A stretch of DNA of 64,000 nucleotides from assembly GCA_937983075.1 (NCBI GenBank), contig CALKAQ010000031.1, positions 1,717 through 65,716 of the forward strand. The letters are read 5' to 3'. A model generated the notes under the pieces. It searched no databases. It was not told the DNA's origin and saw nothing but the letters and a program-made list of their open reading frames with translations. The DNA comes from an uncultured bacterium. GTDB taxonomy: Bacteria; Bacillota; Limnochordia; DTU080; JAAYLA01. The position numbers and the translations under genes are program-made. Below are positions 5,955-32,076 of this stretch, piece after piece (position 1 is the first letter of the stretch; every line of letters begins with the position of its first letter).

Positions 5955-6770
5955 TTGCCAGTGAAAAGAGGACAACGCCGTCGAACCACCGTGCCAAACG
6001 AAAATGGGCCTGGCCTCTTATTTATTTTGGTCGCAATCGGAGCCGTGGCCCTCATCAGCGCTCGCTTTTTCGGTTTCACGCCCGGCGATTGGCTGGCTTC
6101 CACAGGCGGCCCGGTTTCGGTGCAGCAACCGTGGGAAAGCCCGGCGTCGTCAGGGCCGGACGGCAATGACGAATCTGCGCCGATTGTGTTGATTTATCAC
6201 ACACACGCCAGTGAAAACTATGTGCCCAAGGAGGCCCATGCAAGAGCCGGCCAAACCGGCGATATCGTCGAAGTGGGCAGGGCCTTTGCGGCGGCGCTTG
6301 AGGCCGAGGGCATTCGCACGGTTCACCTGACTGGTGCATACGACGCATCATGGTCGGATTCGTACAATCAAGTACGTCCTGCAGTGGCCCAAATGATCGA
6401 GAACTATGGTGAAGTAGCGGCTGTGTTTGATATCCACCGCGATGCAATCGAAAATTGGCATCCCGGTGTGACTACAGCGCAGCTGAATGGCAGCGATGTG
6501 GCGAAAATCATGTTTGTCGTGGGCGAGACGGGCAATAACCGGATTCAGGAAAACATCGCCTTCGCCACCAAGCTCAAAGATCACCTCGGAGCAGTTTATC
6601 CCGAACTCGTTCGGGGCGTGCGCACCATGCAAGGCGATTTCAACGGCGATCTGCATCCCAACGCGGTGCAGGTATATATCGGCGAGCATCGAGACAACAG
6701 TTTAACGGAGGCAAAACTAGCAGCCCAGTATTTGGCCAAAGCTGTGGCAGAAGTCCTCCTGGCCGAATGA
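5955..6770 (+). CDS. SpoIIP-family protein (short paralog of stage II sporulation protein P)
   Basis: N-terminal TM then IVLIYHTHASENYVP ... VFDIHRD ... GDFNGDLHP motifs of the SpoIIP amidase family; TTG at 5955 after AAGGGGGG. Confidence 0.65.
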   Translation: MPVKRGQRRRTTVPNENGPGLLFILVAIGAVALISARFFGFTPGDWLASTGGPVSVQQPWESPASSGPDGNDESAPIVLIYHTHASENYVPKEAHARAGQTGDIVEVGRAFAAALEAEGIRTVHLTGAYDASWSDSYNQVRPAVAQMIENYGEVAAVFDIHRDAIENWHPGVTTAQLNGSDVAKIMFVVGETGNNRIQENIAFATKLKDHLGAVYPELVRGVRTMQGDFNGDLHPNAVQVYIGEHRDNSLTEAKLAAQYLAKAVAEVLLAE

Positions 6771-8331: not shown

Positions 8332-10032
8332 ATGTCCGACGTTCTCTATGACCTCGACTATATCCCCATATTGCGCGCACTGTCCGATCAAGCATTTGAC
8401 ACGAAACAATGGTTCGATCTGGGAGCCGCCGCCAATGAACTGTCACTGACCGATGGCTTTGACCGGCTGCTTTCACTTGAGGATCTGTCCATTCAGCTGT
8501 TTGAACATCAACGCAAAGCGGTATTGCGTGTCCTGCGCGAGATGCGTGGACGGGCCGTCCTCGCCGATGAGGTCGGTCTGGGGAAAACGATTGAAGCCGG
8601 GGTGATTTTGCGGGAGTATATGGTCCGCGGCTTGGTCAGCCGTGTACTCATCCTTGTCCCGGCGCTTTTGGTCAATCAATGGCGGAACGAACTTCAAGAA
8701 AAGTTTCGCATTCATGCGGCTGTAGCAGTTGCTCCGAGCGATTGGCAACGGCATGATGTCATCGTCGCGTCACTCGATCGTGCGAAACGTTCTCCACACG
8801 CCGCCAACGTTTTGGCGAAAGCGTGGGATCTCGTCATTGTTGACGAGGCGCATCACCTGAAAGACCGGGCGAGCAAGAATTGGCAGTTGGTGAACGGACT
8901 CAAAAAGAAGTATTTGCTGCTGCTCACCGCGACCCCGGTGCAAAACGATCTTCGTGAGCTTTACAACTTGATTACCCTCCTTAAGCCTGGCCATTTGATG
9001 ACCTACTCGGAGTTTTGCCGTGAATTCACCATCGATCGCCACTCACCGAAAAACCTCAAGCTGCTTCGGCAACGACTCGATGAAGTGATGGTTCGAACGT
9101 CCCGACGGGAAACGCTGCTGCGTTTTCCCAAGCGCCGCATTCATTCTTGGTCCGCAGCTTTACGAGGAGCGGAGCGCCGCTTTTACAATCGCCTGGTGGA
9201 TGTGCTGCGGGCGGCCTACCAGCAGGCGCCAAAGAGAGAACGCAATATTTTGCCTTTTATCCTCATTTTGCGCGCGGCGAGCAGTTTGCCACAAGCCGCC
9301 GTCCGCACGCTGCACTCCATGACTCGGCGTGGGACATTGCCCGGCGTTGACACGGAGCACGTGAGCGAGCTGGCGGAAATGGCCACTGAACTCATTCCTG
9401 CCAAATTTACACTGTGCCGCCGCTTGCTGCGGGAAGATCTGCGCGGGGAAAACGTCATCGTTTATACAAATTTCCGTTCGACATTGCGCCGGCTTGGGGA
9501 CGCTTTGGAGGATCTCGGCAAAGAAGTGCATCGATTTCACGGCGGTTTGAGCGATGCCGAGAAAGCTTCCGTGATTGACCGCTTCCGGCGCCATGGAGGT
9601 GTGCTCATCAGCACGGAGACGGGTTCGGAAGGAATGAATCTGCAGTTTTGCCGCTGTCTGATCAACTACGACTTGCCGTGGAATCCTTTGCGCCTTGAGC
9701 AGCGGATCGGCAGAATACACCGCTTGGGACAAGAGAACGATGTCCGCATTGACAATTTGGCAGCGGAAGGCACGGTCGAAGGTTACATTCTGTATTTGCT
9801 CGAGAGAAAAATAGCCATGTTTGACCAGGTGATCGGAGAGTTGGAAAGTATCTTGGGGAACTTTGCCGGTTCTTTCGAGCAGCGCGTCGTCCAAGCGTTT
9901 TTGGCTGCTGACGATTTCGAGACGACAAGGCGTCACATGGAGCGTTTGGGGCAAGAACTCAAGGCAGCGGTGCAAATGTACGGCAGACAAAGGAGCTTTG
10001 TCCAGCAGCTCTTTCAGCCGATTGACGTGTAG
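8332..10032 (+). CDS. SNF2/SWI2-family helicase (YqhH-like), module 1
   Basis: LADEVGLGKTIEAG (motif I), VIVDEAHHLK (DEAH), LLLTATPVQNDLRELYNL, helicase-C motifs ending QRIGRIHRLGQ. Confidence 0.85.
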   Translation: MSDVLYDLDYIPILRALSDQAFDTKQWFDLGAAANELSLTDGFDRLLSLEDLSIQLFEHQRKAVLRVLREMRGRAVLADEVGLGKTIEAGVILREYMVRGLVSRVLILVPALLVNQWRNELQEKFRIHAAVAVAPSDWQRHDVIVASLDRAKRSPHAANVLAKAWDLVIVDEAHHLKDRASKNWQLVNGLKKKYLLLLTATPVQNDLRELYNLITLLKPGHLMTYSEFCREFTIDRHSPKNLKLLRQRLDEVMVRTSRRETLLRFPKRRIHSWSAALRGAERRFYNRLVDVLRAAYQQAPKRERNILPFILILRAASSLPQAAVRTLHSMTRRGTLPGVDTEHVSELAEMATELIPAKFTLCRRLLREDLRGENVIVYTNFRSTLRRLGDALEDLGKEVHRFHGGLSDAEKASVIDRFRRHGGVLISTETGSEGMNLQFCRCLINYDLPWNPLRLEQRIGRIHRLGQENDVRIDNLAAEGTVEGYILYLLERKIAMFDQVIGELESILGNFAGSFEQRVVQAFLAADDFETTRRHMERLGQELKAAVQMYGRQRSFVQQLFQPIDV

Positions 10033-10045
10033 GAGATGAGCGCAG

Positions 10046-11395
10046 TTGACGGAGCCGGAAAAAGTAGAACATTTTGTGTTGACGTTCTTCGCTGCGACCG
10101 GATGTCGGGTGCAGCGAAGAGATCGAGTCTGGATCGCTCATTTACCGGAACACATGGCGAAGGCTTTCGGAGTGGATGAGCGGCTTGTTTTCACGTTTCA
10201 GCCTGAACAAGCGTCTTCCAACGTTGAAGTCCTGACACGTGGTCATCGACTTGTCGACGTCATGGTGCAGTACGCTCAGCAGCGTGGGCGTTCATGCAAC
10301 GTCATTTACCTCGGGTCTCAATGGAACGAGATCGTCCGACAAGCTGCCGCTTCTGATCCGTGGCAGATGGGATACCGTCCGGCAGTGCCGCGGCTCGTCC
10401 GGATGGTCGAAACCCTGCGTTCGCTGCGGTTCGTCAACGCCCGTCAGCGTATCATTCAGCGGCGGGTTCTCTATCAACGGCAAGCCTTGTTTCGGTTTCG
10501 GGTCGCGTTTTGTGCCGATGAGAAGCGAGAGATGTTGTATTCCGTGCTCGCCGACCCGAGTACGGAAACAATCGACAGCGTGGTCGACATCGGCGGCGGC
10601 GTCGCCATGCCGGCGGTATGGCGGGGAAAAAACGAAGCTTCCCAACGTGTGCAAACGAAGTTTTTTCCCACGCCGCCATTCGGCCGCCGAAAGAATTTCA
10701 TGTCCAGAGAGGCGAGTTGGCAAGCAGGTGAGGCGGCTTTGCGTCAAGGCAATGCGTATGTGTGGCTTCGGTTGTATCGCAAGGCGTGTGAATACTTGGA
10801 GAATCACATGCTCACGGAAAAACTTCGTTTCGAAGCAGAAGCAGCCGCTCGGCTTGCCGCTGAAAAAAATCGTCTCGACGCGTACTACCGCGGCTTGGCT
10901 GCCGAAACCGTTGATCCGCTGCGCCGGGTATTTAGCCGCATGGCAGCTGCAGAAATGCGGATGGGGTGGGGGGGAGAGCGCGGTACGTGGGAGACACGGC
11001 TGGAACGATTGCGCGCTGAAGCCGTGAGACTGCGACATCAACACGTGGACGAATTGGAAAACTTGGCAGCCGAACGGGAACGCAGGCTCGAAGAACTGCT
11101 GGACCGATATCGAGTCAAAACTGAAATATCGCTGGTGCAAGTTTCGCTTATCCACGTGCCTCGCATCGCTTGGAATTTGCGCCTCACTGGTCCGAGCCGA
11201 CGGGAAGTCACCGTACTTTACGACATCATTCGGGAACGAATCTTGGAACCGCTGTGTGATGCTTGTGAAAACATGTTGACGGGCAACGCGTTGTTGAGTT
11301 GCTGCGGCGATGTCGTGTGCCAAAGTTGCGGAAAGGCCTGTCCAACTTGCGGTGAGTCCGTGGGTGCGACCGCGCCGCGTGAAGTCGGCGGATGA
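10046..11395 (+). CDS. YqhG-like helicase partner protein with C-terminal coiled coil and Cys-rich zinc-ribbon-like tail, module 1
   Basis: N-terminal FVLTFFAATGCRV resembles the Bacillus YqhG N-terminus (from memory); 14 nt after helicase stop; Arg/Glu-rich coiled coil; C-terminal CDACEN...CCGDVVCQSCGKACPTCGE. Confidence 0.55.
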   Translation: MTEPEKVEHFVLTFFAATGCRVQRRDRVWIAHLPEHMAKAFGVDERLVFTFQPEQASSNVEVLTRGHRLVDVMVQYAQQRGRSCNVIYLGSQWNEIVRQAAASDPWQMGYRPAVPRLVRMVETLRSLRFVNARQRIIQRRVLYQRQALFRFRVAFCADEKREMLYSVLADPSTETIDSVVDIGGGVAMPAVWRGKNEASQRVQTKFFPTPPFGRRKNFMSREASWQAGEAALRQGNAYVWLRLYRKACEYLENHMLTEKLRFEAEAAARLAAEKNRLDAYYRGLAAETVDPLRRVFSRMAAAEMRMGWGGERGTWETRLERLRAEAVRLRHQHVDELENLAAERERRLEELLDRYRVKTEISLVQVSLIHVPRIAWNLRLTGPSRREVTVLYDIIRERILEPLCDACENMLTGNALLSCCGDVVCQSCGKACPTCGESVGATAPREVGG

Positions 11396-11411
11396 TCCGG
11401 TGCCTTCAACG

Positions 11412-12281
11412 CTATTCGATTCGGCGCAGTTCCGTCTCCGGGCAGTAGAGCAGCAGACCGAGCCGAGCCCGAAGTTGAATCCGGGGTTGAAATCGACGGT
11501 ACACCTCGGCGATCGCCTGTTTTTGCAGTTGTTCAAGGTTTTCGTCTTTGTTCGGTCCTTCAGCCGCACGTGTTGCAAAGTACTGGTTTACCTGGTCCAG
11601 TTCGGTGTAGAAACGATCGATTGCCTGGTGATACCAGCGCCACAAGGCCGGATCTTCAACGAGGGCTTGTTTGATCGCTTCGCAAGCGATATCAAAAGCG
11701 TGTTGGTAACGCAATTCCCGGCGGCGGCGTTGCGAACGCGGTACACGCTGTTCATCAAGCGGAAGAGTGAGCAATGCTTCGGCTAAGGTTCGGCTGGCTG
11801 ACCCGTCCACCAAATCGACGGCCATAGGACAGGAACGGGTTACCCGCAGGCTGCAGCAGCGTCCGATCTCGAATCCAAACAGGGCGATGGGCCGATAGAA
11901 CTCGCTCTTCTCGGTGTGCCGCGGCACGATTCTCAGGCGGCTCAAATGACCTATGCGCCAAGCGGATGCGAGCATTTGACGCAGCCGCAGAGCGTGAAGG
12001 CCAATGTGCTCAATGCGGTCGTCTTGCCGATCGACCGGTTGCGTTGGGTCTTGAATTCCCAGATACAAGGTGGTCCAGTCGGGAATGGACTGCATGGTGT
12101 ACCAAGTTCCCAGCGGCCGATTTTCCAGTTCGCACACTTGATCGCGACTTAGTTCGGCGCGTATGATTCCCGGCTCGGGGTGTTCAACTCGCGCTCCCAG
12201 CGCCTTCAGGTAAGCCAATGCAAATTCCGTGGTTGCGTCTGGGGGGTGAGTGGACTGCGTCAACAGAGACATGATGATCAC
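11412..12281 (-). CDS. YqhG-like helicase partner protein, module 2
   Basis: N-terminal EFALAYLKALGARVE parallels partner 1 and YqhG; sits 13 nt downstream of helicase 2 on the minus strand; no zinc-ribbon tail. Confidence 0.5.
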   Translation of the reverse strand: MIIMSLLTQSTHPPDATTEFALAYLKALGARVEHPEPGIIRAELSRDQVCELENRPLGTWYTMQSIPDWTTLYLGIQDPTQPVDRQDDRIEHIGLHALRLRQMLASAWRIGHLSRLRIVPRHTEKSEFYRPIALFGFEIGRCCSLRVTRSCPMAVDLVDGSASRTLAEALLTLPLDEQRVPRSQRRRRELRYQHAFDIACEAIKQALVEDPALWRWYHQAIDRFYTELDQVNQYFATRAAEGPNKDENLEQLQKQAIAEVYRRFQPRIQLRARLGLLLYCPETELRRIE

Positions 12282-12293
12282 CAGCCTCTTCTT

Positions 12294-14138
12294 TTAACTG
12301 AGGAATTGATCGATCGTCGGTCGGCTGCGCAGCTCCTCACGGTAAGCTTCAAACGCAGCGGCCAAATCATCGAGTTTGCGTCGAATCTCACTTGGATCAT
12401 CGGCTTCGGCCAATATTTGCGCCAATGCCTCTTCCCACGAGCGCTTGAGGGGCATGCCGGTCAGAATGTCATCGAGCTCGCCGACGGCCATTTCAAACAG
12501 CCGAATCTTGTCTTGCAACAGGTACATGATGTGTTCTTCGATCGTGCCGCGCAAAGTGAAATTATACACATGAACCGGCCGGGTTTGGCCAAGCCGGTGG
12601 ATGCGCCCGATCCGCTGTTCGAGCTTCATCGGGTTCCATGGCAAATCGTAGTTGACCACGTGGCAGCAAAATTGGAAGTTCAACCCTTCGCCACCCGATT
12701 CAGTGCTCACCAGCACTTGACCGTGCCGACGAAACAACTCCTTCGTCCACTCTTTCCGGCTGGAAGAAAGATCTCCGCTGAAGCCCATGGCTACGATGTT
12801 ATATTGCTGCAGTTTGCTCAGCAGCCATTGTTGTGTGGCGCGATACTCGGTAAACACGATGACTTGCTCGCCCAGTTTGCGAATGAGGTCGAGGAGGGTG
12901 TGCAGTTTAGCTTGCTCTTCGAGGGCGAGCGCCTGGGTCATCAACGCGGTGTATTGATTTGCCGCGTCATCGTGAGTGCTTCGTTGTGCCAGGCGATGCA
13001 GCGTCACGGCACATGCTTTGCCGCTTGAACACGCTTCGCGGAGCAGGAGAATGCGTGTGAGAGCGACTTGAATCGGATCGCCGAGCTCCCGGTTGCCACG
13101 CGAAAAGCTTTGCGAGAGATTTTGATAAAATGCTGCCTCGGCCGGCAGTGGATCGAGATGGAAAAAATGTACATGTCTCGGCACGAGTTCAACGGTCTCC
13201 GGTCCCCGCCGATTGCGAATGATGATGCGTTCCAGCTGCGAACGCAGCGCTTCAGGATGACGCACGGTCCTCCGGTCTTCCATGTGGGTGCGGCGGAATT
13301 GCCGATACGTGCCGAGCATTCCGGGGGCGATCAGCTGCACGAGATTATACAGCTCACGGAGATCATTTTGGATGGGGGTGGCCGTGAGAAGCAAACTGAA
13401 TGTCTTGGTGAGACTTCGAAAAAAACGGTAATTGTGGGTCCGTTCATTTTTGACGCGGTGAGCTTCGTCCAAGATGATCATGTCGTATGGAATCGAACGC
13501 AAAATTTCAGCGTGGGGAGGACGTTTCGCCGTGTCGAGCGAGGCAATGAGGACATCGGAACGTTCCCAGTCGTATTCGCTGCGTTGAATACCGGCGGAAA
13601 TCAAGAATTTGTCTTTGAGTTCCTGGTACCATTGCCACATGAGCGCTGCGGGGCAGAGAATCAGCGCTTTCCGGACTTGGCCGCGCAAAATATATTCTTT
13701 AAGAATCAGACCGGCTTCGATGGTTTTGCCGAGTCCCACTTCATCGGCGAGAATGGCCCGTCCACCCATCTCCGTAATCACGCGTTCGGCGGCACGCAAT
13801 TGGTGCGGATAGGGAACAACCCCCACTTTGCGCCAATGGCTCGCCAAGTAATGAGGAGCAATGAGCGTATCCTCAGGCAGGCATTCGAGCTCCAGCGCTT
13901 TCCATGCCAACATGGTCCAAGGGTGGCGAGCATATTTATGTTGGCGTTTGCGTGCCAGCAGGTTGGTCGGGGAGCTCTGCGAAATTTCCACCGCAAGTTG
14001 ATCAGCCAAGATTTCAGGGCTGCTCCATGTTTCATGGGGGGCCATAGGGGTTGGCTTGAAGTCGGTGAAGCCGAGAAGGGGTACTGTGATCGTGATATCC
14101 GAGAAAGCTTCCATCGTCACCGTCCTTACCGTTCTCAA
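12294..14138 (-). CDS. SNF2/SWI2-family helicase (YqhH-like), module 2
   Basis: ILADEVGLGKTIEAG, ILDEAHRVKN, LLLTATPIQNDLRELYNL, QRIGRIHRLGQ; roughly half the residues identical to helicase 1 across the ATPase core by eye. Confidence 0.85.
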   Translation of the reverse strand: MRTVRTVTMEAFSDITITVPLLGFTDFKPTPMAPHETWSSPEILADQLAVEISQSSPTNLLARKRQHKYARHPWTMLAWKALELECLPEDTLIAPHYLASHWRKVGVVPYPHQLRAAERVITEMGGRAILADEVGLGKTIEAGLILKEYILRGQVRKALILCPAALMWQWYQELKDKFLISAGIQRSEYDWERSDVLIASLDTAKRPPHAEILRSIPYDMIILDEAHRVKNERTHNYRFFRSLTKTFSLLLTATPIQNDLRELYNLVQLIAPGMLGTYRQFRRTHMEDRRTVRHPEALRSQLERIIIRNRRGPETVELVPRHVHFFHLDPLPAEAAFYQNLSQSFSRGNRELGDPIQVALTRILLLREACSSGKACAVTLHRLAQRSTHDDAANQYTALMTQALALEEQAKLHTLLDLIRKLGEQVIVFTEYRATQQWLLSKLQQYNIVAMGFSGDLSSSRKEWTKELFRRHGQVLVSTESGGEGLNFQFCCHVVNYDLPWNPMKLEQRIGRIHRLGQTRPVHVYNFTLRGTIEEHIMYLLQDKIRLFEMAVGELDDILTGMPLKRSWEEALAQILAEADDPSEIRRKLDDLAAAFEAYREELRSRPTIDQFLS

Positions 14139-26113: not shown

Positions 26114-26836
26114 CTAAACGGCTTCTTCGTCCAGTGAGGCGTCGGATGGCGTACTGAGATTCGCCTGTAGTTCATTCTCTAGCTGCTCGAAGAACGCGTC
26201 TTTGTTCCCGAAAGCATAAACGATTTGTCCGTACTTTAAACCTGCCTCCCGAGCAACGGCAGCGAGCGTCAGCCGCTTGCCTTGTTTGCGCATGCGTATG
26301 CCGGCTTCCAAGGCAAGTTTCGCAGCTTCCTCCTTGGCCAGGCGGCCTCGATCCGGCTCGTACGGCATCGGAATGCGACCGCCACGATTGGAGGCTAAGG
26401 GGCTCGCCATTTGCTTGACGTTGTCGAGATCTCGAAAAGCTTCAAGAGTAAAGCGATCGATGCGTTTGATGCCGGCTTCGATCGCACCGAGACGGGCTTC
26501 AAGCCGATCCAGTCGTTCATGTAACGAATCGAGACGTTCGAGCACTGCGGCGGTCTCCTCCTTATTCTCAGCATGTTTCTTGTAGCTCTGGCGATTCGAG
26601 GCATCGCGTGAGCCCAGCTGAATGAGCCAATCGAGGCAGTTGCTCAGGGCTGAGAAAGTTTTGATCCCTAATTCTTGATAAAGCGCGTCTGTAGAACGGA
26701 AATCGTAAGGCGTTTCTGTCGCTGCTGTCTCCTTGGCTGCCGGAAAATTGCTCGTTCCAAAATGTCTGTCGAGTACACGCTCCGCCGTCGCTTGTCTCTC
26801 CAGTGATTCATAGTAACGCTGTTTGGCTTCTCTCAA
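26114..26836 (-). CDS. Hypothetical protein with coiled coil and C-terminal HTH-like segment
   Basis: Heptad-rich LERLDSLHERLDRLEARLGAIEAGIKRIDR; C-terminal LTLAAVAREAGLKYGQIVYAFGNKDAFF resembles a TetR-type HTH; coherent codon usage on minus strand. Confidence 0.45.
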   Translation of the reverse strand: MREAKQRYYESLERQATAERVLDRHFGTSNFPAAKETAATETPYDFRSTDALYQELGIKTFSALSNCLDWLIQLGSRDASNRQSYKKHAENKEETAAVLERLDSLHERLDRLEARLGAIEAGIKRIDRFTLEAFRDLDNVKQMASPLASNRGGRIPMPYEPDRGRLAKEEAAKLALEAGIRMRKQGKRLTLAAVAREAGLKYGQIVYAFGNKDAFFEQLENELQANLSTPSDASLDEEAV

Positions 26837-27939: not shown

Positions 27940-27948
27940 TGGTATAAT
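27940..27948 (+). promoter_or_regulatory. Extended -10 promoter element (TGgTATAAT) facing the membrane-protein/FtsH-like operon
   Basis: TGGTATAAT at 27940-27948 with weak -35; leaves about a 170 nt 5-prime leader. Confidence 0.4.
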
Positions 27949-28118
27949 GAGCGTGCTGGTGGAGGCTCGCACGGAGCAGCCAACGCTGGCCATTGATAAA
28001 GATTACAACTTCATCCTACTGGTGGAACGGAATCTGTAAGGAATGCAACGCTTGGGATCCCTTGGACGCGACGGAACGCGCTCGATGGTTTCCAGGCGTT
28101 TTATTTTGCGAGGTGAAG

Positions 28119-28673
28119 ATGGTGCTGCAGGGCCTGCGGATTCCCGTCATCGTCGCCGTGTTCGTGGTCAGCCTGGGTCTTGCCCTCCTCGGCCAGCAGG
28201 TGCTGTATGGGAAGCACGTAACGTCACCGATGATTCAAGAGCTCGAGGCCTATGACGGAGTCGTCTCGGTTGAAGTGTTGTCGACCGGAGGAAAATCGGA
28301 GGTCTGGATTTCAATCGACCAAGGTGTCAATCTGCTGCAAGTTTATCCCGAGTGGGAACAACTTGCTTTGGCCAGGTTGGGAGACGATTTTGGCGGCATC
28401 CGAATTGTCGACCGTCGTGATGAGCAGCTGTCCGAGGCGTATTACCAGCTGCATTTCGGTATTGCCGAGGCCGTGATGACGGGAAGGTTCCGTGAGTTGA
28501 ACGAAGAGGCGGCTCAAATTGCCGCGGACTGGGGACTCGATCGGTATCGCATCGACATCGATGCGACGCGAGTCTATGTCCAGCTCGAACGAGGCGAGGC
28601 ATATTTGGTCGAAATCGTTCCGCGCGTATTCTGGCAAAATCATCAGGCAGAAAGGGGGACGGCACTTTGGTAA
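28119..28673 (+). CDS. Hypothetical membrane-anchored protein (single N-terminal TM, soluble C-domain), first gene of FtsH-like operon
   Basis: ATG at 28119 after GAGGTGA; N-terminal LRIPVIVAVFVVSLGLALLG TM; stop overlaps downstream FtsH-like start by 7 nt; the track start 27993 is TTG without RBS. Confidence 0.5.
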   Translation: MVLQGLRIPVIVAVFVVSLGLALLGQQVLYGKHVTSPMIQELEAYDGVVSVEVLSTGGKSEVWISIDQGVNLLQVYPEWEQLALARLGDDFGGIRIVDRRDEQLSEAYYQLHFGIAEAVMTGRFRELNEEAAQIAADWGLDRYRIDIDATRVYVQLERGEAYLVEIVPRVFWQNHQAERGTALW

Positions 28674-30208
28674 GGGAAGTTCTCATTGGCTTGGCGGCTG
28701 CCGCTTTTGTGTTTCTCGTGCTTCAAGGTGTCGATGTCGTGCCGTTCCTCCTTGTCGGCGGCTTTCTCTTGCTGCTGCGATTCATGATGGAACAGCGAGA
28801 GCAAGGCAAGCGTTTTGAACTCGTAAATGCCGGAAGCGACAGGCGGGAATCGACCGGCGTCACTTTTGCCGACATCGGCGGTCAAGAGGTTGCCAAAAGG
28901 GAATTTCTCGAGGCCCTCGATTTTCTCAAAGACCGAGAATCCGTACAGAAGCTCGGAATTCGCCCGCTCAAGGGCATTTTGCTCGCCGGGCCTCCCGGAA
29001 CCGGGAAAACGCTGCTTGCCAAGGCGGCCGCGAGTTATGTCGACGCCGTTTTTATTTCGACTTCGGGCAGCCAATTTGTCGAAATGTACGCCGGAGTCGG
29101 CGCGCAGCGCATCCGCAAACTGTTCCGCCAGGCGCGGGAGATGGCGCAAAAACAAGAAAAGCCGTACGCGATCATATTCATCGACGAGATCGAAGTGCTC
29201 GGCGGCAAACGGGGGAAGCACACCAGCCATCTCGAATACGACCAGACACTCAACGAACTGTTGGTTCAAATGGATGGGATGGCATCTCAGTCGAGCGGCG
29301 TACAAATTTTGGTCGTCGCTGCCACGAATCGCCCGGACTTGTTGGACAGTGCCTTGCTGCGGCCGGGTAGATTCGACCGGACCGTATATGTCGAGTTGCC
29401 TGACCGGGAAGGTCGGAGACACATTTTAAACATTCACACGCGGGGACGTCCGCTCGCCGATGACGTCGACTTGGATATGCTTGCCCAAGAAACGTACGGG
29501 TTTTCCGGAGCGCATTTGGAAAGCTTGGTCAATGAGGCGGCCATTCTTGCCTTGCGCGAGAAGAAAGACCGCATTGAGATGCATCACTTCAAAGAAGCCG
29601 TAGAAAAAGTGATGATGGGCGAAAAGCTGGATCGCAAACCCCGACAGGAAGAGCGGGAACGCATTGCGTATCACGAGGCGGGACACGCGCTGTTGAGCGA
29701 AGTCGTGCGCCCGGGATCCGTCTCGTCCATCACCGTTACATCGCGAGGCAAAGCGCTCGGATATATGCGGCAAGCCCCGGAAGACGACCCGTACCTTTAC
29801 ACGAAGGATGAGCTGCTCGATCAAATCGCCGTTTGCCTGGCCGGTGCGGTGGCCGAAGAAGTCTTTTTTGGCAGCCGCAGCACAGGTTCGATCGGTGACT
29901 TTGAACAAGCGGTCGATATTGCTGAACGCCTGATTGCGGCAGGCATGTCCGATCTGGGGATCATCAATCCCGAGACGATCGGCGCCCAGCGGCTTCACGC
30001 ACAAGTACAGCGCATTTTGCGCGAGCAGGAGCAATTTGTGCGGCGCCAAATCGAGGCATGCCGCGACAAGCTGCAGGCGGCTGCCTGCCTTCTGCTGGAA
30101 AGGGAACGACTTTCGGGCGACGAATTCCGCGAGATCATCGGAGATCTTGTGCCGCTGCCGCGTGAAAAGGCGGCGCAAGGCAAAGATACACCGAGCGATG
30201 CAGCGTGA
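28667..30208 (+). CDS. FtsH-like AAA+ ATPase / M41 zinc metalloprotease, short form lacking the periplasmic domain
   Basis: Walker A GPPGTGKT, Walker B IIFIDEID, SRH ATNRPDLLDSALLRPGRFDR, then HEAGHAL zinc motif; only about 40 aa of N-terminal TM; TTG start after AAAGGGGGA. Confidence 0.8.
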   Translation: MVREVLIGLAAAAFVFLVLQGVDVVPFLLVGGFLLLLRFMMEQREQGKRFELVNAGSDRRESTGVTFADIGGQEVAKREFLEALDFLKDRESVQKLGIRPLKGILLAGPPGTGKTLLAKAAASYVDAVFISTSGSQFVEMYAGVGAQRIRKLFRQAREMAQKQEKPYAIIFIDEIEVLGGKRGKHTSHLEYDQTLNELLVQMDGMASQSSGVQILVVAATNRPDLLDSALLRPGRFDRTVYVELPDREGRRHILNIHTRGRPLADDVDLDMLAQETYGFSGAHLESLVNEAAILALREKKDRIEMHHFKEAVEKVMMGEKLDRKPRQEERERIAYHEAGHALLSEVVRPGSVSSITVTSRGKALGYMRQAPEDDPYLYTKDELLDQIAVCLAGAVAEEVFFGSRSTGSIGDFEQAVDIAERLIAAGMSDLGIINPETIGAQRLHAQVQRILREQEQFVRRQIEACRDKLQAAACLLLERERLSGDEFREIIGDLVPLPREKAAQGKDTPSDAA

Positions 30209-30221
30209 GGCAGCGAGCACG

Positions 30222-30250
30222 TTGCCTCTGCTTGCCCCTTACGGTATAAT
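30222..30250 (+). promoter_or_regulatory. Sigma-A type promoter upstream of argS (-35 TTGCCT, 17 nt, -10 TATAAT)
   Basis: TTGCCT 30222-30227, TATAAT 30245-30250. Confidence 0.5.
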
Positions 30251-30266
30251 ACGGAAAGCGACGGAG

Positions 30267-30312
30267 GGCCCTTCGCTGGAGCGTGCAAGCTCCCGAAGGG
30301 CCGCTCCCTTTT
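30267..30312 (+). other. Strong leader hairpin (about 14 bp stem) followed by CUCCCUUUU, between FtsH-like gene and argS
   Basis: GGCCCTTCG(CT)GGAGC-GTGCAA-GCTCCCGAAGGGCC; may be a terminator for the upstream operon, a 5-prime stabiliser or an attenuator. Confidence 0.45.
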
Positions 30313-30357
30313 ATGCTGTGAAGCTTGCAACAGCGTGAAAGTGGGGGAAAATATCGG

Positions 30358-32076
30358 ATGACATCATTCAAAGAACAGGCGATTGAACTTGTTGCCGCCG
30401 GACTCGATCGCCTCGACCCGGGCATTCGGGCGGACAACGGAATCGACGTTGCCCAAATGATTGAGGTGCCGCCGAGCGGCGAGCTGGGCGATTATGCCTT
30501 CCCTTGCTTTGCTCTTGCCCGAATTTTGCGCCGCTCACCCGTGGAGATCGCCCAACAGCTGGCGGAAGTCGTCGAAAAACCGCCGTGGCTCGCGAAGGTA
30601 GAGGCCGTTTCGGGTTATGTCAACTTGACGCTCGACCGCGGTCAGCTGGCGGACGCCGTGCTGCGGGCAGCCATTGAGGAAGGGCGTTCGTTCGGTTCGG
30701 CTCCTGATCGAGGAAAAACCGTAGTCATCGATTATTCCTCGCCCAACATAGCGAAGCCGTTCACGCTCGGACATATTCGCAGTACGGTCATCGGTGAATC
30801 TTTGGCGAGAATTTTCGAGCACCGCGGCTACAAAGTCGTGCGCGTCAATCACCTCGGCGACTGGGGCACGCAGTTCGGGCGGCTGATTGTCGCCTATAAG
30901 CGCTGGGGCGACGAAGAGCGATTGGCGGAAGGGGCTATCAAAGAGCTGTTCCGCCTGTACGTTCGTTTTCACGAAGAAGCGGAAAAAGATCCGTCCCTCG
31001 AAGACGAAGGTAGAGCGTGGTTTCTGCGACTGGAGCAAGGAGACCGGGAAGCGACGGAGCTTTGGCGTCGTTTTCGCGCTTTGAGCCTCGAAGAGTTCGA
31101 GTCCATGTATCAACGTCTGGGGATTCGTTTTGACGATTACACCGGCGAAAGCGGGTACAACGACGTTCTCGAACAGACGGTGCAGGCGCTCGAGGATAAG
31201 GGCTTGCTGACCGAAAGCGACGGCGCATTGGTCGTGGAGCTCGGCGACGATATGCCGCCTTGCATCATCCGCAAGAGAGACGGCGCTACGCTGTATGCCA
31301 CGCGTGACATCGCAGCGGCCATTCGCCGTTACGAAAAAACCCGGTTTGATTGGATGTTTTATGTGGTAGACAGCCGTCAGAGCCTTCACTTTCAGCAGGT
31401 ATTCGCCGTGCTGAAAAAGCTCGGCATGGAATGGGCCGACGGCATGGAGCACATTGCGTTCGGGACGCTGATATTCGGGGAGGAAATCATGTCGACCCGC
31501 AAAGGGAACGTCATTTTCCTGGAAGACGTCCTGAACGAAGCGGTGGAACGAGTGCGCCAAATCATTGAAGAGCGCAATCCGACGCTTACCGACAAAGAGC
31601 AAGTCGCCGAGATGGTCGGGGTCGGTGCCGTCGTATTCAACGATCTCGCCCACAACCGGATCAAAGACGTCGTGTTTGAATGGGATCGGCTGTTGAACTT
31701 TGACGGCGATACCGGACCTTATGTGCAATATACGCACGCTCGGGCTTGCAGTGTGCTCAGCAAAGGACGGGAGCAAGGAGAACTGCCGCTTGAGAGCGGT
31801 TTCGCCGCATACGAATGGGAAGATCAGGAAATCGACCTCATCCGCCTCCTCGGACGTTTTGGCGATGTCGTGGAAACCGCTAAAGAAGCACGTGAACCGT
31901 CCACCGTTGCTCGCTACGTTCTCGATCTCGCCCAGAAATTTAATGCTTTTTATCACAGCAATCGCATATTGGGGAATGAGCGGGCACCGCTTCGGCTGGC
32001 CATTGCCCGGGCGGTCAAAGAAGTGCTCGCGGCCGGTTTGTATCTGCTGAACGTGCAGGCACCGGAAAAAATGTAA
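30358..32076 (+). CDS. argS: Arginine--tRNA ligase
   Basis: Class I HIGH-region PNIAKPFTLGHIRSTVIG and KMSK-type IMSTRKG; ATG 30358 after GTGGGGGA. Confidence 0.9.
   Translation: MTSFKEQAIELVAAGLDRLDPGIRADNGIDVAQMIEVPPSGELGDYAFPCFALARILRRSPVEIAQQLAEVVEKPPWLAKVEAVSGYVNLTLDRGQLADAVLRAAIEEGRSFGSAPDRGKTVVIDYSSPNIAKPFTLGHIRSTVIGESLARIFEHRGYKVVRVNHLGDWGTQFGRLIVAYKRWGDEERLAEGAIKELFRLYVRFHEEAEKDPSLEDEGRAWFLRLEQGDREATELWRRFRALSLEEFESMYQRLGIRFDDYTGESGYNDVLEQTVQALEDKGLLTESDGALVVELGDDMPPCIIRKRDGATLYATRDIAAAIRRYEKTRFDWMFYVVDSRQSLHFQQVFAVLKKLGMEWADGMEHIAFGTLIFGEEIMSTRKGNVIFLEDVLNEAVERVRQIIEERNPTLTDKEQVAEMVGVGAVVFNDLAHNRIKDVVFEWDRLLNFDGDTGPYVQYTHARACSVLSKGREQGELPLESGFAAYEWEDQEIDLIRLLGRFGDVVETAKEAREPSTVARYVLDLAQKFNAFYHSNRILGNERAPLRLAIARAVKEVLAAGLYLLNVQAPEKM

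Follow-up and report, generated by a model that had tools for sequence, protein, structure and literature searches.

What is an FtsH-like protease that lacks the domain FtsH exposes outside the cell, and what is the small membrane protein whose gene overlaps its own? The question is raised by a two-gene locus in a 64,000-nucleotide stretch of DNA (hereafter the window) from an uncultured bacterium of the Limnochordia (GenBank assembly GCA_937983075.1, contig CALKAQ010000031.1, positions 1,717 to 65,716, forward strand). FtsH is, to our knowledge, the only membrane-anchored AAA+ protease of bacteria, and the control of substrate access by its outer domain and by HflK/C is under active structural study. 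We find that the protease gene and the small gene before it, whose product we call the partner, make up a real, widespread and apparently undescribed two-gene module, conserved across many anaerobic, mostly thermophilic or syntrophic Firmicutes and present in at least several hundred species. Our reading, held with middling confidence, is that this bicistronic operon encodes a two-subunit membrane AAA+ zinc protease in which the partner, with its N-terminus inside the cell and its C-terminus outside (N-in/C-out), would supply an ectodomain in trans, and that its role is likelier vegetative than sporulation-specific.

An earlier note on this DNA had described a 184-residue protein with a single transmembrane helix, its gene overlapping by 7 nucleotides (nt) that of a 513-residue FtsH-like protein with the full set of FtsH catalytic motifs and no periplasmic domain. 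This structural observation is confirmed in all particulars. The list of open reading frames (ORFs) and a direct reading of the sequence agree on the 7 shared nt, with the TAA stop codon of the small gene at 28671-28673, and the same genes of 184 and 513 amino acids (aa) were called independently on four metagenome contigs with an identical protease. The G+C content is 0.55-0.57 throughout the region, with no compositional anomaly. Nor are the two genes a product of chance, as each belongs to a large conserved family.

The catalytic body of the protease is that of FtsH. It matches the Pfam families AAA (residues 104-243, E=9.9e-39), AAA_lid_3 (266-310, E=5.4e-14) and Peptidase_M41 (326-490, E=7.6e-35), and its best sequence match in the PDB is a full-length FtsH chain (7tdo_A, E=6.9e-105), with which it aligns residue by residue. 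In an alignment of 31 relatives the AAA motifs are invariant: GPPGTGKT at 108-115, D173/E174, the pore loop M-Y141-A-G, and the second region of homology (SRH; TNRPDLLDSALLRPGRFDR, 220-238) with its stretch TNRPD..RPGRFDR. The same holds in the M41 domain for H336, E337 and H340 of the HEAGH motif (336-340) and for D411. Homology gives good support to the prediction that this is an ATP-driven, processive, membrane-anchored zinc protease.

What is missing lies at the N-terminus. The alignment of the FtsH family model TIGR01241 (FtsH_fam) to the protease begins only at profile position 112 of 598, and we conclude from this that the extracytoplasmic domain, which spans about 70-80 aa in canonical FtsH, is absent; a Pfam search likewise gave no match to FtsH_ext (PF06480) in the protease. 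AlphaFold2 models a hairpin of two helices (residues 2-19 and 25-52, with a turn at 20-24) at a predicted local distance difference test score (pLDDT) of about 89-92 for residues 1-30 and 86 for 31-40, with a predicted disordered linker at residues 45-61, followed by the FtsH body. The hairpin is under evident constraint: its two hydrophobic segments, residues 5-20 and 24-40, are conserved in 78 loci, G8 and G21 are invariant across these loci, E4 is found in 71/78, D or N at residue 23 in 75/78 and P26 in 72/78, and E4, G8 and G21 are all invariant in the 31-sequence alignment. Because the membrane helices are joined by a turn of five residues, the protease would expose almost nothing outside the cell. 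The protein thus has the features of the FtsH/M41 family, namely the AAA+ module, the M41 site and two (predicted) N-terminal transmembrane helices, and lacks those of the housekeeping-FtsH equivalogs, namely the extracytoplasmic domain and a score above the curated cut-offs (464.1 against 600 bits for TIGR01241, 315 against 1008 for NF008004).

To see how widely this architecture is shared, species-representative genomes were scanned with two peptide patterns taken from the protease alignment, EYDQTLN[QE] and SGS[EQ]F[VI]E[MV]Y, and the protease family was found in at least 594 of them. The counts out of 80 given here come from the best 80 of the loci in these genomes, which include Moorella, Thermoanaerobacterium, Caldanaerobacter, Tepidanaerobacter, Pelotomaculum, Desulfotomaculaceae, Desulforudis, Thermincola, Syntrophomonadaceae, Negativicutes (Dendrosporobacter) and Halanaerobiales (Fuchsiella). 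Relatives of the window protease at about 55-75% identity are abundant and constant in length, at about 490-525 aa, and the nearest named ones are Limnochordia (63% identity to Limnochorda pilosa).

The protease is accompanied by its partner almost without exception. A profile search places a partner homologue directly upstream, on the same strand, in 79/80 loci across several classes, and the one exceptional locus has only 578 nt of upstream sequence, with no small gene therein. In 58 of 86 loci the two genes overlap, by 1-17 nt, and in most others they lie within 30 nt of each other; hundreds of bases part the genes in L032 (a gap of 1293 nt), L060 (487), L064 (291) and L022 (246). The association also holds in reverse. 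Two of three distant partner homologues (25-28% identical) are followed by an AAA+-M41 protein of about 495 aa, and after the third an ORF cut by the contig end starts where the protease is expected; Limnochorda pilosa and two metagenome-assembled genomes (MAGs) also carry the two genes in this order. The dedicated partnership proposed in the earlier note is thus strongly supported, by the adjacency in 79/80 loci, by three of three reverse cases if the cut ORF is counted, and by the overlapping junctions.

The partner evolves much faster than the protease. A word-indexed search with the partner returned five relatives, and one with a 60-sequence profile ten; hence an exhaustive profile search was used, which recovered 630 cluster representatives at E<=1e-3 and 352 at E<=1e-10, all about 170-200 aa long. 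Neither the window protein nor 60 diverse members have relatives in Pfam or NCBIfam, and a profile search of PDB sequences found none. Seven partner homologues from named genomes are all labelled 'hypothetical' or 'uncharacterized' in NCBI and UniProt, and the carrier genomes annotate the pair only as 'AAA family ATPase' and 'hypothetical protein'. No published description of the pair was found in the literature searched, which omits most subscription journals. The partner family, for which Pfam and NCBIfam hold no model, is apparently undescribed, and the suspicion that the pair belongs to no recognised family has been borne out.

The AlphaFold2 model of the partner (mean pLDDT 91, predicted TM-score 0.77) consists of a long N-terminal helix, residues 8-43, and a compact alpha/beta domain in the order strand-strand-helix-strand-helix-helix-strand-strand-strand. 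Near-invariant residues are P37, V48, Y76, D98, L104, G122 and R169. A basic residue, R7, precedes the transmembrane helix, and position 7 is R or K in 52/78 sequences. The last ~15 residues are variable, with a pLDDT of about 62. Foldseek against the PDB returned only weak matches to ribosomal protein uS3, with a TM-score of about 0.3 and a root-mean-square deviation of about 14 Å. Two other leads were set aside. Hints of a ferredoxin-like fold (HMA, CopZ, RND porter subdomains, DUF6286 and a de novo alpha/beta protein) were too weak, and the longer database entries, inspected for natural fusions and for N-terminal extensions of interest, seem to owe their length to miscalled starts or to low-complexity tails at the C-terminus.

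Do the two proteins touch? Mutual information was computed over the 184 x 513 inter-protein column pairs of 78 paired sequences and compared with 20 shuffled pairings. The strongest coupling joins partner residue 22 to protease residue 16 (z 9.2), above the shuffled maximum of 7.6, and the next real pair reaches 6.6. Both residues lie inside membrane helices, and pairs that link a membrane helix of one protein to a membrane helix of the other account for 5 of the top 50 couplings against 0.84 expected. The combinations G/L and I/S at these two positions occur in loci whose protease N-termini are otherwise dissimilar, suggestive of an origin in more than one lineage. From near-absolute co-occurrence, translational coupling and this one covariation signal, we infer that the small protein is a subunit or a dedicated modulator of the protease.

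The same contact would orient the partner. Protease residue 16 is 4-5 residues short of the outer turn, and in the partner the C-terminal end of the helix comes 6 residues after residue 22; if the two are in contact, the helices are therefore parallel and the partner is N-in/C-out. By net charge, the flank N-terminal to the partner's transmembrane helix is the more positive one in 115 of 154 members (the order is reversed in 14, and the two flanks are equal in 25), and in members with longer N-tails the tails are basic; an N-terminal signal-anchor tends to be N-in when its n-region is basic. The cysteine content of the partner's soluble domain is 0.24%, against 0.48% for the cytoplasmic part of the protease and 0.99% for neighbouring ORFs, and 61/82 partner domains are free of cysteine where 39 would be expected. 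We consider it fairly likely that the partner domain faces outwards.

Several observations weigh against this account of the pair. The covariation signal is a single above-noise pair from about 70 effective sequences, a depth at which there is little power, and the same method did not recover the antiparallel pattern expected inside the protease hairpin. The positive-inside evidence is mixed, because plain counts of K+R oppose the net-charge bias and favour the C-terminal flank of the partner helix (77 of the 154 members, vs 33 for the N-terminal flank), and the partner domain is poorer in cysteine than the protease by a factor of only about two. For the fold of that domain Foldseek found no informative relative in the PDB, and no sequence similarity of the partner to the FtsH ectodomain family (FtsH_ext, PF06480) was seen. 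The promoter described below, although of sigma-A type, is compatible with additional regulation at a sporulation stage. Lastly, the word paralogue presupposes a canonical ftsH elsewhere in these genomes, as would be expected of a gene that nearly all bacteria carry.

The alternative that best survives these data turns the partner around. Were it N-out/C-in, its domain would be cytoplasmic and would act as an adaptor or inhibitor of the AAA or protease rings, or the partner would be a regulated substrate with a C-terminal degradation tail. The K+R counts point this way, and the variable, low-confidence last residues would fit such a tail; there are also second-tier couplings between the soluble domain and the cytoplasmic linker of the protease, at a noise-level z of 5-6.6. 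The net charge, the basic longer N-tails and the depletion of cysteine all speak for the opposite orientation, as does the sole above-noise coupling, which sets partner residue 22 at the depth of a protease residue in the outer leaflet. We regard the inverted topology as rather unlikely, and take the outward-facing partner as our working model.

If the pair forms a protease complex, when would it be made? The earlier note suggested that the protease may be regulated, specific to sporulation and paired with its own adaptor or substrate. On that reading the pair would be switched on during spore formation and degrade one or a few developmental membrane proteins. There are grounds for the idea: spoVT adjoins the pair divergently in the window and its close relatives, the window organism carries spoIIP, spoVT and gerA, most of the named genera with the pair belong to endospore-forming lineages of Bacillota, and canonical FtsH has sporulation roles in Bacillus subtilis. 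The adjacency to spoVT proves to be local, however; beyond the window it occurs only in the window's close relatives, 6/80 loci. The association between the pair and spore formers is confounded by phylogeny. Two surveys of sporulation genes by Galperin list no such gene: the later one mentions canonical ftsH only, and a search of the earlier one brought up no FtsH term.

The upstream region argues in the same direction. In 66/82 loci the 250 nt before the small gene contain a strict TGnTATAAT on the coding strand, usually 30-100 nt from the start codon; the background rate is 0.008 per 250 nt. In the window this element is TGGTATAAT, and its first base, 27940, is also the first base of the feature under study. 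No conserved -35 was found in an alignment anchored on the promoter, and a two-hexamer promoter scan missed TGGTATAAT because such a scan requires a -35. An extended -10 of the form TGnTATAAT is a hallmark of sigma-A promoters in Firmicutes, not of sporulation sigma factors. Inspection of the promoter alignment by eye showed no motif of a sporulation sigma factor, and a scan aimed at one was not run. Because a perfect extended -10 precedes the pair in so many loci, the sporulation-specific reading is not supported.

Nor do the conserved neighbours point to sporulation. Unsupervised clustering of ORFs recovers a same-strand array of ftsK, a rodZ-like gene, rimO, pgsA, the pair, cinA, thpR, recA, recX and rny, in which rimO occurs in 53/79 loci, pgsA in 33/79 (with a single-sequence query), cinA in 48/79 and recA in 37/79. 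The window has the same backbone (ftsK, rodZ ... pgsA ... cinA, thpR, recA, recX, rny) with extra genes on both sides of the pair. The genes inserted beside the pair in this lineage are a 240-aa ORF, spoVT, argS, His_Phos_1, DUF3084, a deaminase and a CDF transporter. Since the pair is a conserved resident of the pgsA-cinA interval across genomes, it is the window neighbours that are the insertions, and the earlier description of the pair as part of a block inserted between pgsA and cinA has to be reversed. A further point against the sporulation-specific reading is that in Bacillus and Clostridioides difficile pgsA presumably stands next to cinA and the pair is missing. Taken with the sigma-A-type element, this housekeeping context leaves a dedicated role in sporulation improbable.

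It is very improbable that the two genes are mere neighbours with unrelated functions, or that the FtsH-like ORF is what is left of a decayed ftsH. The score of the protease under the TIGR01241 equivalog cut-off is what a remnant might be expected to give, whereas the presence of the family in so many genomes, its constant length and the invariant catalytic residues of 31 relatives rule out a pseudogenised ftsH fragment. As for chance proximity, the adjacency and the overlapping junctions persist in classes whose neighbourhood is otherwise rearranged, and the partner family was never found without the protease in the three cases checked, one of them the cut ORF. That the AAA+ protease should be the core of a mobile module or of an anti-phage defence module is scarcely credible, as the generic AAA matches of the protease in PADLOC (IetA, TRIP13) are far weaker than its FtsH matches and cover the AAA module only, the small protein has no PADLOC match, and the locus is syntenic, apparently vertical among core genes and even in G+C content, with neither patchy strain-level presence nor flanking integrases seen.

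The mechanism that we propose runs as follows. The pair would be a translationally coupled operon under its own sigma-A-type promoter. The protease, presumably a hexamer by homology, would use ATP to pull membrane or membrane-associated proteins through its pore, and the pulled substrates would be cut in the M41 chamber. The single helix of the partner would pack against the first protease helix, and its alpha/beta domain of ~150 residues would lie on the outer side of the membrane, at the place of the canonical FtsH extracytoplasmic domain, from where it would govern the assembly of the protease, the access of substrates or the activity. The module would be ancestral and vertically inherited in the rimO-pgsA-cinA-recA housekeeping region of clostridial-type Bacillota, and would serve as a vegetative membrane-proteostasis or membrane-biogenesis protease, which we consider likelier than a sporulation-specific one. 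More tentatively, and with somewhat more doubt than belief, we suggest that this is an unrecognised two-component FtsH, ancestral to clostridial-type Bacillota, in which the ectodomain was lost and an unrelated bitopic partner sends its helix into the membrane ring of the protease and provides, in trans, a domain on the outer face. Proximity to pgsA and pgpA hints, through guilt by association only, at a role in membrane-lipid or membrane-protein homeostasis, and a two-component FtsH encoded beside pgsA, and sometimes pgpA, may couple the state of the envelope and its lipids to the proteolysis of membrane proteins.

The module amounts to a natural FtsH without an outer domain, regularly accompanied by a separate protein coupled to it in translation, and offers a genetically separable system for the study of outer-domain function. 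The acetogen carriers Moorella and Thermoanaerobacterium are genetically manipulable. The partner also defines a new protein family, with the 630 cluster representatives noted above. If the two proteins do not interact, the protease is one more FtsH paralogue, and ordinary. The features of the locus are collected in Table 1.

Table 1. Features of the two-gene locus, in coordinates of the window.
Feature	Position	Strand	Remarks
Extended -10 element TGGTATAAT	27940..27948	+	170 nt upstream of the small gene's ATG; -35 unrecognisable
Leader imperfect hairpin (28047-28100), ending in UUUUAUUUU (28099-28107)	28047..28107	+	Directly before the ribosome-binding site
Partner gene	28119..28673	+	184 aa; in-frame ATG at 28119; GAGGTGA precedes the ATG
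Partner transmembrane helix, residues 9-28	28143..28202	+	Hydrophobicity scan of 154 members; within AlphaFold2 helix 8-43
Partner soluble alpha/beta domain, residues 44-170	28248..28628	+	AlphaFold2
FtsH-like AAA+ zinc metalloprotease gene	28667..30208	+	513 aa; TTG start; ribosome-binding site AAAGGGGGA at 28651-28659
Two-helix membrane hairpin of the protease, residues 2-44	28670..28798	+	5-residue turn, extracytoplasmic domain absent; alignment, AlphaFold2
AAA+ module including lid domain	28976..29596	+	Walker A 28988-29011, Walker B D173/E174, pore loop MYAG, SRH 220-238
Peptidase M41 domain	29642..30136	+	HEAGH at 29672-29686; third zinc ligand D411
Terminator hairpin (30263-30307) and CUUUUAU	30263..30314	+	GC-rich; probable intrinsic terminator of the two-gene operon

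The ends of the transcription unit can be read from the promoter element and the terminator hairpin, which together make the pair an autonomous two-gene operon in the window lineage. RNA folding of 30195-30330 gives a z-score of -4.65, with 0/200 shuffles as stable, and a hairpin with a U-run also lies 3' of the protease gene in L007 and L008. The leader of 170 nt (27949-28118) is another matter. The fold of 27951-28125 has a z-score of only -1.46, no Rfam match was found in the leader, and the leaders of close relatives are about 50 nt, without the long hairpin. The leader hairpin is lineage-specific, given how much shorter these leaders are, and is possibly a leader terminator or attenuator whose membership in the unit is uncertain.

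Other signals were noted around the operon. Within the intergenic region 30195-30358 the terminator hairpin is preceded by a promoter-like TTGCCT-17-TATAAT (30222-30250), from which a transcript would run directly into the hairpin. The start of argS is ambiguous: a TTG at 30325 would give 583 aa, and gene callers place it at 30358, for 572 aa. In 13 of the 66 loci with the -10 element, the sequence TTATGT[A/T]AAC(T) follows 1-22 nt downstream, where the background rate is 0.0017 per 30 nt; the window lacks it. The carriers include a Negativicutes MAG (L049), Dendrosporobacter (L038), a Syntrophomonadaceae MAG (L045), a Tepidanaerobacteraceae locus (L058) and a Thermosediminibacteraceae locus (L083), together with L015, L019, L035, L036, L057, L063, L074 and L082, and the motif may be an operator or a conserved transcript start.

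Among the neighbouring genes, pgsA is separated from the pair in L088, L089 and L091 by pgpA (phosphatidylglycerophosphatase A) and a 76-aa DUF2905 gene; there the pair comes directly after two consecutive phosphatidylglycerol-synthesis enzymes. The 240-aa ORF between pgsA and spoVT in the window (26114-26836, minus strand) has a coiled-coil middle and no family assignment; its C-terminus resembles a TetR-type helix-turn-helix weakly (E=3.9e-5, below the cut-off), and its homologues occur in the same 6 Limnochordia-like loci where spoVT adjoins the pair. The place shortly upstream of pgsA that rimO holds in other genomes is taken in the window by a minus-strand nuo operon, and rimO itself was not seen. 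Farther away, two SNF2-family helicase genes on opposite strands (8332-10032, plus; 12294-14138, minus) flank a YqhG-like gene (11412-12281, minus; E=6.7e-6), in a cluster that adjoins spoIIP (5955-6770), hsp33 and a Mur-ligase gene. Two long overlapping ORFs at 10046-11578, of 449 aa (plus) and 428 aa (minus), have no Pfam match at E<=1e-5.

How, then, does the module compare with the FtsH systems that are known? With canonical FtsH (Escherichia coli, B. subtilis, Thermotoga maritima; MEROPS M41, TIGR01241) the window protease shares the classic-clade AAA+ module with its Walker A and B motifs, the aromatic pore loop, the SRH arginines, a C-terminal M41 domain with HEXXH and an Asp as third ligand, and two N-terminal membrane helices. 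It differs in having no extracytoplasmic domain between those helices, in its own family signatures (the MYAG pore loop, HLEYDQTLN and E4/G8/G21), and in the dedicated small membrane protein encoded before it. Extra copies of FtsH with altered behaviour are known from Pseudomonas aeruginosa clone C, whose FtsH2 (PMC10850787) is reported to be non-essential and narrower in substrate range, with a behaviour set by its membrane-proximal region. That copy is horizontally acquired, reportedly keeps its periplasmic domain and is not known to have a dedicated partner gene, whereas the window family is syntenic and, unlike such acquired copies, apparently vertically inherited.

Variation in the membrane anchor has parallels in the mitochondrial i-AAA (Yme1) and m-AAA proteases, which are also FtsH-family enzymes and work with accessory membrane proteins such as prohibitins; these are eukaryotic, differ in topology and N-terminal domains, and have no homologue of the partner. 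A second parallel is offered by membrane proteins that adjust or steer proteolysis by FtsH through binding to it, among them SpoVM, YccA, YqgP/GluP, MgtR-type peptides and LapB/YciM. These modulators act on full-length FtsH, do not have the partner's architecture of a transmembrane helix and a 150-aa alpha/beta domain, and have no detected sequence relationship to it.

The closest likeness is to the holoenzyme of FtsH with HflK/HflC (SPFH), in which a membrane FtsH is joined by bitopic N-in/C-out accessories with large outer domains that modulate access, and whose accessory genes are likewise conserved. The partner differs in being about half the size of HflK/HflC and in having no Band_7/SPFH domain: none of 60 members has such a match in Pfam at E<=0.1, and SPFH/Band_7 is not among the first 25 families listed for these members, at E<=0.1, in either the Pfam or the NCBIfam results. 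Its gene also differs in being translationally coupled to that of the protease. HflK/C contact the periplasmic domain of FtsH, which is the very domain that the window protease lacks. By analogy, then, the nearest functional counterpart of the module would be FtsH with HflK/C, and its architecture would be like that of an FtsH in which the outer domain has been replaced by a separate protein.

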